64,000 bases of DNA from Bdellovibrio sp. (GTDB lineage: Bacteria > Bdellovibrionota > Bdellovibrionia > Bdellovibrionales > Bdellovibrionaceae), in contig JAKFCY010000002.1 in the NCBI GenBank assembly GCA_036676395.1, forward strand, positions 1,472,001 through 1,536,000, in the 5' to 3' direction. The notes under the pieces were generated by a model. That model saw nothing but the letters and a program-made list of their open reading frames with translations, had not been told where the DNA came from and made no database searches. Both the position numbers and the translations under genes were made by a program. Of the stretch, positions 25,675 through 28,554 are shown piece by piece; the stretch's first letter is position 1, and each line of letters opens with the position of its first letter.

Positions 25675-26091
25675 ATGAAACTAGTTTTAGCTCTATTAAT
25701 CATTGGCTCTTTATTTTCATGCTCTACTAGAACATGCAAACCCAATGAAAATCTTGAACAAACTCAAGATGCAGCTGTTCAAAAAAATCTACCTATAGCC
25801 GGCGAGACGAAAATTTCACCAACTACGAATATGACAAATCAAAATAAAAAACTAAAAGTTTACAAGCCAGATGGCTCTGTTCAATGCGAACCAGGCACCG
25901 GAACTTCAGCTGCTGAAATGGCAAAACAGCTTGGTGATATTAAAGTTTATTCTTCTGAAAACAAACATGATGGTTTAATCCGTATTCAAGTCTGCGGTCA
26001 AGCCACTGGCAATTGTAACGTTTTTGAAATTAATGAAGCTGATGCTGCCAAGGCCGAAAAGCTTGGTTTCAAAAAGTGGAAAAGTAACTAA
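25675..26091 (+). CDS. Lipoprotein of unknown function
   Basis: FS-C lipobox; VYKPDGSVQCE...CG..TG domain. Confidence 0.75.
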   Translation: MKLVLALLIIGSLFSCSTRTCKPNENLEQTQDAAVQKNLPIAGETKISPTTNMTNQNKKLKVYKPDGSVQCEPGTGTSAAEMAKQLGDIKVYSSENKHDGLIRIQVCGQATGNCNVFEINEADAAKAEKLGFKKWKSN

Positions 26092-26176
26092 CTAAGCCCG
26101 TTCGCCTAATAGCGTATCATTGTAAAACAATTAGACAGACAAGCCTTACCAGCTCGAATAGGGCGGGGATAGGGCT

Positions 26177-26192
26177 TGGCCCTGGTCTCGCT
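26177..26192 (+). promoter_or_regulatory. sigma54-like promoter
   Basis: TGGCCCTGGTCTCGCT (GG-N10-GC); shares TTGGCCCTGG with the element at 37017. Confidence 0.5.
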
Positions 26193-26230
26193 AATACTCC
26201 TATGGAATATCAATCCATATAGGAGCTATT

Positions 26231-27310
26231 ATGAAGTCTTCACGTTTATTAAAGGCCTTTACCCTAGGTTTTGCTTTAACTATGTCTTCTAATGCATTTG
26301 CAGGCATGGCTCAGCAATTGTTAACTGAAGATATTCAAGGCGCGATTAAGACTTTACCGCGTGAAACGCGTCTTTATCATTATTTTGGAATCAATCTTAA
26401 CGGTAACAAATTAGAAGATACGAATTTAAAAAAAGCTAAAAACCGCTATTCAATGGTGAATGAGCGCGTAAAATACGCGGCTGAAAGTTTTTGGAATTTA
26501 AATGACAACACCACCAGATTAGCTAATGCCGGTCTTGGTTTATACTTAGCGATCGATCCATATGCGTCTTCTCCGGCGGCGGCTCCAGATACAGGAGCTA
26601 ACTTTGGTTCTACAATGATTGAAGTGACTTTCAACGCCGGAACCAAATATTTAGATTTAATGAAAGATGTACCGTTACGCGAAGAAACAATCCAAGCTAT
26701 CGTTACTGAAACCGGAATGAGCCAGGCAGATGCGGCTAAACTTTTATTACCACGTAATGAAGTTAAACCAAACGGAGAAACGGGCGTGGCCCACAAAGGT
26801 TTTGCACGCGATACATTGCAATTTATGGCAGAAAAGCAAAACGTAAATTTTAGAAAATTAGTTTATGCAGTTTACTCACAAGCTGGAATTTCTTTGACTG
26901 AGTATGGCTGGCAAGCAGCGACGACTTCATTTTGTGGATCTACAAATCCTCATCGTTCAGCTTTAGTTTATATCGGCGGACCGCAAACACAAAATGCAAT
27001 CAAATCGGTAACAATGATTTACTGGGCGCCACATTCAGCAGAATTAGATGCTCAAGAATCTGAAGCTTTAGATCGCAATAAAAAACTTTATAGCGTGTTA
27101 CAGCCGTTACGTCCTTTAGAAAAAAGCTATCAGTCAATCGCAGACGATGCTTATAAAGCTAAAAAAGCTGGCGATAAAGCTACGGCAAAACAATTAAGTG
27201 ATCAGTTGCCAGATATTATTTCAAATATCACTGCAACTATTATTTCTACGTATCCAGATCAGGCTGAATTATTAGACCTTCGCTCAAAAACTTTTGAGTG
27301 TATGAAATAA
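26231..27310 (+). CDS. Secreted protein with ADP-ribosyltransferase-like fold motifs
   Basis: Signal peptide (NAFA); LYH strand, GLGLYLAIDP..S motif, FG..MIEVTF..G.KYLDL, later GIS..EY; functional call by motif reading only. Confidence 0.55.
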   Translation: MKSSRLLKAFTLGFALTMSSNAFAGMAQQLLTEDIQGAIKTLPRETRLYHYFGINLNGNKLEDTNLKKAKNRYSMVNERVKYAAESFWNLNDNTTRLANAGLGLYLAIDPYASSPAAAPDTGANFGSTMIEVTFNAGTKYLDLMKDVPLREETIQAIVTETGMSQADAAKLLLPRNEVKPNGETGVAHKGFARDTLQFMAEKQNVNFRKLVYAVYSQAGISLTEYGWQAATTSFCGSTNPHRSALVYIGGPQTQNAIKSVTMIYWAPHSAELDAQESEALDRNKKLYSVLQPLRPLEKSYQSIADDAYKAKKAGDKATAKQLSDQLPDIISNITATIISTYPDQAELLDLRSKTFECMK

Positions 27311-27328
27311 TTCTTGAAGGATCCATTT

Positions 27329-28477
27329 GTGAAAACTCTTTTAGCCACGTTAATTTTATTTTTAGCAGCCGCACAAGCTTTTGCCTGTGATGCTGCTATT
27401 GAAAAATTCTCGCGCGATTGCGGGATGCAAGACCGTATGGCTAAAATTCGTGATGACTATGCGGCAATTGGTATCGATGTTGATGAAATCGGCGAGTACA
27501 AAGTATTACGTTTTATCGATCGTTCTTCTTGGGAAAAAGCTAAATCATTAAAAAAAGCCCCAACCGACATATATGATCCAGCTCCTGCCACTTGGCAAGT
27601 TTGGGAAAAAGGCATTGATTCACTATTTAAAGGCCAACAATTAAAAAATGTTTTATTCGGCCAAATGAATTTAGATCAAAATATTTTTTCACGCATTAAT
27701 ACTGTTTTATTAACTGATGGCATAACAAGTATTAAAGATAAAAACACTTCGCAAAGTAAAAAACCTGGTGAATTTCGTCATTATAGCGATGTTGGCGTTG
27801 GTTGGTGCGCGGGTAATGAAAATGCTAACAACTATCACCAAGGCATTCGCAAATCTGAAGATTCGATGGAACGTTTTCAAAAACGCTGGGAATCCTTAAT
27901 GGGTATTGAATTTCGTGAAATCGTTAAAAATGAAGATGGTCCGAATTGGCGCAGAGCTGATTTACAATCTGGCATGCATATATCTGAAGGAGCAACTTGC
28001 CGTGGTGGCAAAGGTGTTTTCATTGGCTACAGCGATTCTGGCCAAGTAGAAAGACAAATCGATTGGATCCGTATTTTTATTAAATCCAACTTACAAAGCT
28101 ATCAACGTGGCGAACCAAAGCTTGCGCCGGTCGAATTAGCCGCTGTTGTGCAAAAATGGTTTGTCAGCGTTCACCCTTTTGCTGACGGCAACGGCCGTAC
28201 TTCACGCGGTATACAAGAATTAATTATGGCTAATTTTGGGTTACCCTTTGTACCAGGTGGCGACTTACAAAACGATGCTATGGAAGACGTTGATGTTTAT
28301 ATCGAAAATACATATAAAAAGGTAGATTCAATGTTAACTGAACTTGAAATGTGCCTTAATAAACGTGGTGACCGGCTCATTCCAAGAGCTTGTCGCACTA
28401 TTGATGAATTAAATCATCATAGAATTTCTGATGACGAAGTCGAACAACCAGCTCAACAGATCCAAAACGGCGGTTAA
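27329..28477 (+). CDS. Secreted Fic-domain protein (AMPylase)
   Basis: Complete Fic motif HPFADGNGRTSR, PGEFR upstream motif; signal peptide from GTG 27329 ending QAFA. Confidence 0.88.
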   Translation: MKTLLATLILFLAAAQAFACDAAIEKFSRDCGMQDRMAKIRDDYAAIGIDVDEIGEYKVLRFIDRSSWEKAKSLKKAPTDIYDPAPATWQVWEKGIDSLFKGQQLKNVLFGQMNLDQNIFSRINTVLLTDGITSIKDKNTSQSKKPGEFRHYSDVGVGWCAGNENANNYHQGIRKSEDSMERFQKRWESLMGIEFREIVKNEDGPNWRRADLQSGMHISEGATCRGGKGVFIGYSDSGQVERQIDWIRIFIKSNLQSYQRGEPKLAPVELAAVVQKWFVSVHPFADGNGRTSRGIQELIMANFGLPFVPGGDLQNDAMEDVDVYIENTYKKVDSMLTELEMCLNKRGDRLIPRACRTIDELNHHRISDDEVEQPAQQIQNGG

Positions 28478-28526: not shown

Positions 28527-28554
28527 ATGCAACATAATATAACTTATCAGAAGT
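28527..28554 (-). other. Probable chromosomal dif site (XerCD target)
   Basis: Minus strand ACTTCTGATAA-GTTATA-TTATGTTGCAT: 11-6-11 layout with ATAA/TTAT inner palindrome and XerD-type arm TTATGT; intergenic. Confidence 0.8.

Follow-up and report, generated by a model that had tools for sequence, protein, structure and literature searches.

Fic enzymes and ADP-ribosyltransferases (ARTs) are classic toxins that pathogens direct against their hosts and deliver by specialised injection systems. Fic-type effectors such as AnkX of Legionella, IbpA Fic2 of Histophilus and the AvrB/AvrAC-type proteins reach the eukaryotic cells in which they act through type III, type IV or two-partner secretion. 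To our knowledge, the means by which predatory bacteria disable their prey, beyond hydrolytic enzymes, are poorly known. Here we analyze a pair of adjacent genes in a 64,000-nucleotide stretch of a Bdellovibrio sp. genome (the window; G000:C2:1472001-1536000). The genome is 3.4 Mb in size and 99% complete; among named records, those of Pseudobdellovibrio and Bdellovibrionota stand closest to it. Gene 1 (26231-27310, plus strand; 359 residues, ATG preceded by AGGAG) encodes a protein of an unannotated family with a likely ART fold, and gene 2 (27329-28477, plus strand; 382 residues) encodes a Fic protein. The two families are repeatedly found side by side in Bdellovibrionota. The best explanation we can offer, which we hold about equally likely to be right or wrong, is that the window pair is a sigma54-driven operon for two Sec-exported, disulfide-stabilised proteins that cooperate outside the predator cytoplasm.

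Gene 2 is almost certainly a Fic enzyme. Its product scored 33.6 bits against the Pfam Fic family PF02661 (cut-off 24, E 7e-8), and the same domain was present in all 109 homologues. A profile made from 53 sequences (the window protein and 52 of the homologues; this set is used for all Fic counts below) matched FICD chains at 1e-12 in a profile search of the PDB; a match to NCBIfam XopAC/AvrAC was weak (36 bits vs a cut-off of 450). The AlphaFold model (predicted local distance difference test, pLDDT, 92; predicted template modelling score, pTM, 0.89) has the all-helical Fic core fold, with 122 chains matching at Z ≥ 8. FICD came out at Z 16.6 (223 residues aligned, root-mean-square deviation, rmsd, 3.7), AnkX at Z 16.4 (252 residues aligned) and BT_2513 at Z 16.0, followed by AvrB (Z 13.8) and IbpA Fic2 (Z 12.0); SoFic and the Bep/VbhT proteins were likewise below BT_2513.

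The catalytic motif, HPFADGNGRTSR, occupies residues 287-298, with H287 as the predicted catalytic His, and fits the pattern HxFx(D/E)GNGRxxR. It is complete in 53/53 aligned relatives, where H, F, D, G, N, G, R and R are invariant. The inhibitory motif (S/T)xxxE(G/N) was seen in at most three of the 53 sequences at any single aligned position and is conserved at none; among 27 close relatives of gene 1 it occurs once. No antitoxin-like gene was found. The original prediction, which had claimed a complete Fic motif free of an inhibitory helix and of an antitoxin gene, was thus right on these points. From the sequence, gene 2 most likely encodes a constitutively competent Fic nucleotidyl-transferase, with AMPylation as its predicted activity.

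Like FICD/HYPE and BT_2513, the gene 2 protein combines a Fic fold of ~220 residues (rmsd 3.5-3.7) with a canonical motif. It differs from both in having only 18-20% identity to them, no TPR domain and no conserved inhibitory helix, and in carrying a predicted Sec signal and three conserved Cys pairs. FICD is a class II AMPylase/deAMPylase of the endoplasmic reticulum (ER) lumen, extracytoplasmic like the predicted site of the gene 2 protein. AnkX, IbpA Fic2 and the AvrB/AvrAC-type effectors are secreted and lack the brake motif, as is predicted for gene 2, and AnkX, AvrB and IbpA Fic2 match it in fold; unlike them, gene 2 shows only a Sec-type signal, and its presumed target is bacterial. AnkX transfers phosphocholine by means of a variant motif, whereas the gene 2 motif is canonical. 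Named records carrying the gene 2 family are labelled Bdellovibrionota only, and the family is a new Fic subfamily, very probably exported and probably disulfide-bearing. The window genome holds two further exported Fic paralogues, at 48% and 39% identity: L008 (G000:C2:2397515-2401531) and L009 (G000:C3:351195-355244). One of them has a 384-residue secreted protein of unknown family 7 nucleotides (nt) downstream and the other adjoins a patatin-like gene. In some Fic copies of tandem modules elsewhere (L040, L042), Lys replaces the motif Asp (HPFEKGNGR, HPFNKGNGR).

The partner of gene 2 belongs to a family that sequence databases do not name. Gene 1 had no match in Pfam, NCBIfam, PADLOC or the PDB sequences, and in PHROGs nothing beyond one PHROG at E 0.078; a cluster look-up returned only the name "hypothetical protein". 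Among 1.84 billion representatives, a profile search recovered 117 clusters (50% identity) at E ≤ 1e-3, of which 73 reach ≤ 1e-10 and 57 reach ≤ 1e-30, and 26 close homologues share 32-97% identity with the window protein. Two alignments are used below: a close one of 27 sequences, and a wider one of 73, made of the window protein and 72 of the 117 clusters once fragments, fused forms and the weakest matches were left out. In 19 longer or odd family members a Pfam scan found nothing above threshold and no Fic fusion. The ART-like domain also stands at the C-terminal end of longer proteins, of ~935 residues (P0218, P0224, P0238) or 485-548 residues (P0215, P0219, P0222, P0227, P0237), whose N-terminal 200-630 residues have no Pfam match.

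The AlphaFold model of gene 1 (pLDDT 83, pTM 0.80) consists of a signal helix (1-24), an alpha/beta domain (~26-270) and a long C-terminal helical hairpin (274-353), which is probably tied to the domain by C235-C357. Foldseek gave weak PDB matches to 6kyf (probability 0.95), an anti-CRISPR ADP-ribosyltransferase, to MbcT (0.87), NatT (0.72) and the C domain of diphtheria toxin (0.66), and to an insecticidal-protein catalytic domain and Xre-RES; all ART-superfamily matches had E > 1e-2. In the VIA wide search, the only matches covering the domain were MbcT (Z 6.7, rmsd 4.8, 151/183 aligned, model residues 26-289) and Xre-RES (Z 6.1, 131/144 aligned). A further VIA comparison added ParT (Z 6.0, 129/159 aligned), NatT (Z 6.0), the C domain of diphtheria toxin (Z 5.9; 146 residues aligned, with model residues 35-292 on toxin residues 7-187) and 9k3a_B, a pre-ejectosome protein of cyanophage A4 (Z 5.5, 150 aligned). 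All non-helical matches that span residues ~26-292 are ART-superfamily domains. The wide search also matched residues 274-355 to PspA, ESCRT-III and designed bundles (Z 6-7.5), which we read as a generic coiled-coil resemblance. The named matches in BFVD are ART-PolyVal. A protein language model placed gene 1 nearest to the Exotox-A_cataly cluster (0.80 for the whole protein, 0.88 for residues 26-275; both are leads by the tool's own calibration), and its other named neighbours, DUF3990, PARP/DarT, Arr-ms, Tox-ART-HYD1 and ART-PolyVal, all belong to the ART clan.

Because these individually weak lines all point to one superfamily, we consider an ART fold likely for gene 1, and we propose that it represents an unannotated family, restricted to Bdellovibrionota, that would branch at the edge of the ART superfamily. 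The ART fold claimed in the original prediction thus agrees with the structural matches and the language-model neighbours, although the scores are middling and a link by sequence profile is lacking; the AlphaFold and Foldseek comparison proposed with it left the Fic fold clear and the gene 1 matches ART-like but weak.

The best domain-covering matches, the MbcT, NatT, Xre-RES and ParT toxins (Z 6.0-6.7, 129-163 residues aligned), differ from gene 1 in several respects. Gene 1 is predicted to be exported, is about twice as long and has a C-terminal hairpin and a Cys pair, and it has no cytoplasmic antitoxin. Its candidate residues come in the order known from diphtheria toxin and exotoxin A, with a His on strand 1, a Tyr on strand 2 and a Glu on a later strand. 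Unlike these toxins, gene 1 has no receptor or translocation domain, no detectable sequence homology to them, ~75 extra residues between the two halves of the domain, and a Glu that varies within the wider family. The cyanophage A4 protein and phage ART-PolyVal domains match by Foldseek and BFVD, but at TM-scores of 0.2-0.3, and ART-PolyVal domains sit within virion proteins of more than 1000 residues, unlike gene 1.

Residues invariant in the 27 close relatives of gene 1 are Y49-H50, N99-A-G-x-G-x-Y105-x-A-x-D109-P110..S113, F125-G126, E131 and Y225; E224 is conserved in at least 90% of them. The LYH, GLGLYLAIDP..S and FG..MIEV motifs pointed out beforehand are both present and conserved. In the model H50 lies on strand 46-52, Y105 on 104-107 and E224 on 220-229 (the TEYGW strand), which is the ART order. 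H50, Y105 and E224 are thus a candidate catalytic triad, with E131 as the alternative Glu. This agrees with the H-Y-type pattern seen in gene 1 earlier, and it supplies candidates, E224 or E131, for a catalytic Glu that had been called not obvious. If the alignment to diphtheria toxin (model residue 35 on toxin residue 7) starts ungapped, H50 would fall about where the catalytic His of the toxin, His21, lies. Whether gene 1 is catalytically active we regard as a close call, leaning slightly towards no.

Both proteins look exported. We used a crude rule of our own, which asks for a 10-residue hydropathy of at least 1.8 within the first 45 residues, K/R before it and a small-x-small pattern after it. 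It was passed by 49/53 Fic sequences, 21/27 close and 67/73 wider relatives of gene 1. The window gene 1 falls just under the threshold (1.69 vs 1.8); its N terminus, MKSSRLLK, has three basic residues and is followed by a 15-residue apolar stretch and AFA/G. In the Fic family the signal ends almost universally in A-x-A-C-D, which in the window protein is AFA/CD. Conserved Cys residues come in even numbers in both proteins. The six of the Fic protein, read as three pairs, are found in 52 (C25), 53 (C36), 38 (C165), 33 (C229), 52 (C347) and 52 (C360) of the 53 sequences. In gene 1, C235 and C357 are present in 27/27 close relatives and in 73/73 and 72/73 of the wider set, respectively. Such pairs would fit folding in an oxidising compartment. 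On this sequence evidence both proteins are very probably exported, in keeping with the Sec-type signal peptides first assigned to them. For the Fic protein, cleavage by signal peptidase I and a C25-C36 disulfide are favoured over lipidation because of the Ala pattern at -3/-1 and the paired C36; C25-D26 (27386-27391), a Cys at +1 followed by Asp, would equally suit a lipobox that carries a signal for retention in the inner membrane.

That the two families are coupled across the phylum goes beyond the original prediction and is new here. A gene 1 profile recovered six genome loci, and a Fic-family gene is adjacent in 5/6; in one of them (L005) the two genes come in the opposite order and have different neighbours, and in L001 other genes (LysR-type, small secreted) stand in place of the Fic gene. 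Among 201 Bdellovibrionota genomes, 28 had an ART-like match (E ≤ 1e-5) and 10 a Fic-family match (E ≤ 1e-20). The Fic match lies within ~1.3 kb of an ART-like match in 7/10 Fic-bearing genomes (G000, G156, G007, G113, G114, G141 and G182, the last with two loci). Of the remaining three, G076 is fragmented, with its matches on different contigs, and G090 and G127 have no ART-like match. The arrangement varies among seven fetched regions: ART-like-Fic-Fic (L040), two ART-like genes and a Fic gene (L041), a Fic gene and three ART-like genes (L042), convergent genes (L039 and L043) and a pair with one gene between (L044). All the ART-like and Fic open reading frames (ORFs) of these arrangements have signal-like N termini. 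The Fic genes of L040 (G182:C12:57000-65000) are two tandem genes of 477 residues each, and the three tandem ART-like genes of L042 (G114:C180:3000-9000) have cysteine-rich N termini. Because the genes stay neighbours even where their order, orientation or copy number changes, a functional link between the families is probable. A prediction of the complex between the mature Fic protein and the mature gene 1 protein scored 0.00, which speaks neither for nor against binding. In literature other than subscription journals, we found no paper that connects Fic/AMPylation or ART enzymes in such a role with Bdellovibrio or other predatory bacteria, nor one that pairs both families.

The two genes of the window are adjacent and co-oriented, as first described. 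Gene 2 is open from a TTG at 27314 (387 residues), so that the gap to gene 1 is 3 nt with this start and 18 nt with the GTG at 27329. The GTG appears the more likely true start because homologues begin MKTLL/MKKLL and because a GAAGGA precedes it at 27316-27321; the existing gene call (P0027, 387 residues) takes the longer TTG form. Two antisense ORFs, at 26446-26796 and 27381-27880, were regarded as spurious, each a shadow of the gene opposite. A sigma54-like -24/-12 element, TGGCCC-N5-TCGCT (26177-26192, plus strand), stands 39 nt 5' of the gene 1 ATG. It has the GG-N10-GC spacing of the reference pattern (TGGCAC-N5-TTGCW-like), and its core, TGGCC..GG..TCGC, is invariant in 5/5 aligned relatives, which bears out the element named in the original prediction. 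No sigma70-like site was found in the region upstream of gene 1. Some 40 nt further upstream than the -24 element, a block at 26113-26137 (plus strand) is nearly invariant in 5/5 relatives while its flanks diverge; it may be the site of an activator (enhancer-binding protein). No activator gene for the promoter was identified. We propose that the pair forms one operon under sigma54-dependent control.

Several results weigh against the reading of the pair as an exported Fic enzyme acting with an ART-type partner. For the fold of gene 1, the VIA tool notes that a Z under 8 may reflect a common arrangement, and the values of gene 1 (5.9-6.7) are middling. The only Foldseek match in the PDB at E ≤ 1e-3 was the cyanophage protein 9k3a_B (E 8.4e-4). 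Profile comparison with the PDB gave chance-level matches only (4lid, E 1.1; frequenin, E 0.071). A Pfam scan of the 73 family members at E ≤ 10 hit 47 families with one member each, and no ART family was among the 25 listed. The RES domain (PF08808) was tried and rejected: hhalign against 21 Bdellovibrionota RES proteins gave 2.35% probability over 58 columns, although the G-x-Y-x-A strand was aligned with its RES counterpart, and PF08808 had no match in the window's own genome. Because this direct profile test gave 2.35%, gene 1 was not filed under RES or any curated ART family.

For the activity of gene 1, only Y105, G126 and C235 are invariant in the 73 wider relatives; residue 50 is His in 50 of them and Ser, Asn or Thr in the rest, while Glu is found at position 224 in 50 and at position 131 in 43. 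When 11 ART-like ORFs from the seven fetched loci were added to the family alignment, the 10 beside a Fic gene kept the Tyr in 10/10, the His in 6/10 and the Glu in 1/10, with the alignment uncertain; the eleventh, from the Fic-less locus L038, keeps His and Glu. For the uninhibited state of gene 2, a near-invariant helix, E61-Y62...R66...R70, lies in the N-terminal part of the Fic protein (E61 in 51/53) and superposes on the part of FICD preceding the core; it could be a non-canonical brake. For the pairing, 21/28 genomes with an ART-like match, including five of one genus, have no Fic of the gene 2 family (E ≤ 1e-20), and the two extra Fic paralogues of the window genome have no ART-like neighbour. 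For expression, three short contigs (151-242 nt, 95-97% alike) from one soil metatranscriptome map to both genes and are a weak hint that the pair is transcribed in a relative, but they could be DNA carry-over.

Set against these points, a cooperating exported pair would work as follows. The sigma54 promoter would drive both genes as one operon, and the two proteins would leave by the Sec pathway, be stabilised by disulfides and act together outside the predator cytoplasm. The gene 2 protein would transfer nucleotidyl groups as an uninhibited Fic enzyme, with AMPylation the most likely reaction. In the window subfamily, gene 1 would probably use NAD+, either as a transferase or as a glycohydrolase. 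The site of action would be the prey cytoplasm or a leaky prey compartment during attack. A prey-derived site seems the likeliest because ATP and NAD+ are cytoplasmic while both proteins are very probably exported. Export in an unfolded state and the need for periplasmic disulfide formation could protect the predator itself. The predation toxin cassette envisaged in the original prediction is in these terms plausible, with toxicity towards prey a tentative proposal that we think possible rather than probable. Its fullest form is a Sec-dependent two-enzyme weapon, in which a disulfide-locked, ART-like NAD+ enzyme and an uninhibited Fic protein, co-regulated by sigma54, would act on prey proteins and become active only on meeting the ATP and NAD+ of the prey; we rate it as somewhat unlikely.

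A non-enzymatic partner role of gene 1 is a serious rival because His and Glu are patchy in the wider family. Gene 1 would then be a dead ART fold serving as regulator, inhibitor or immunity protein, chaperone or targeting subunit of the exported Fic protein, which would be the sole enzyme. The recurrent tight adjacency, with one to three ART-like copies per Fic gene, resembles partner or immunity arrays, the genes are only 3-18 nt apart, and a Fic protein without the canonical inhibitory motif might need an external brake. That motif is not conserved in gene 1 either, however, and the window subfamily keeps H50, Y105, E131 and E224. The many ART-like genomes that have no gene 2-family Fic, moreover, argue for a Fic-independent role of the gene 1 family. 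We consider this alternative unlikely, if not strikingly so.

In a second alternative the two proteins are not toxins and modify envelope or periplasmic proteins of the predator itself, in housekeeping or signalling; both might use nucleotides that leak out of prey, or the Fic protein might transfer another group or remove modifications. The Sec-type signals are the only export signals seen, and there is no recognisable translocation domain or injection system beside the genes. FICD, the closest Fic fold, works extracytoplasmically (in the ER lumen), and an equally good match is AnkX, which transfers phosphocholine. The neighbours by Pfam scan are envelope genes: bamB (PQQ_2, E 3e-47) lies upstream, followed by a 138-residue lipoprotein-like ORF, and a porin (Porin_5, E 2e-17) lies downstream. 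The periplasm, however, is not known to hold ATP or NAD+, and the patchy spread (10/201 and 28/201 genomes), tandem duplication and variable arrays are accessory or effector-like and not those of housekeeping genes. We regard this alternative as improbable.

A third alternative, in which the neighbouring genes have nothing to do with each other and an alpha/beta protein of some other function resembles the ART fold by chance, would account for Z values under 8, for the lack of profile homology to ART families and for the hhalign result with RES. It is very improbable, since distant families of the phylum also have the two genes side by side, in varied orders and orientations, all domain-covering structural matches and named language-model neighbours are of the ART superfamily, and the conserved motifs lie on the strands that correspond to those bearing His and Tyr in the ART core. 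A cytoplasmic, class-I-like Fic toxin-antitoxin pair, in which the upstream gene neutralises Fic, has the two-gene layout, the upstream partner and the missing internal inhibitory motif in its favour, but is disfavoured almost to vanishing by the export-type N termini and conserved Cys pairs of both proteins, by an upstream protein that at 359 residues is no small antitoxin and lacks the inhibitory motif, and by the reversed or convergent order in other genomes.

Downstream of the pair, a 25-nt dif-like site (28528-28552, plus strand) begins 51 nt 3' of the Fic stop codon. It is invariant in the window and in four related loci (L001-L004) while its flanks diverge, and a search of the 3.4-Mb genome allowing up to three mismatches found this one copy only, with none in a reversed control. 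A complete relative has the locus about 52% of the way along its chromosome. The conserved block and this position fit the dif (putative Xer site) beside which the pair had been placed. The GC skew of the window shows no clean sign switch at 28.5 kb; because the skew follows gene orientation, it is evidence neither for nor against a terminus. Relatives differ in the genes on either side of the site, with extra genes after it in L003, which suggests a plasticity zone or Xer-exploiting insertions. The lipoprotein-like ORF between bamB and gene 1 (25675-26091) has an LFSC lipobox and no Pfam or NCBIfam match; it is kept in the window and L001-L004, and L005 and L006, two pair loci that are more distant, lack it.

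If the assignments made here hold, a phylum-restricted family of exported, brake-less Fic proteins would extend nucleotide-transfer toxins to bacterial predation, and gene 1 would open a new branch of the ART superfamily, an unannotated family repeatedly coupled to Fic. Were the two-enzyme weapon the right reading, it would tie nucleotide-transfer toxins to bacterial predation for the first time. Such enzymes would also raise the question of how proteins exported by Sec reach co-substrates that are cytoplasmic.

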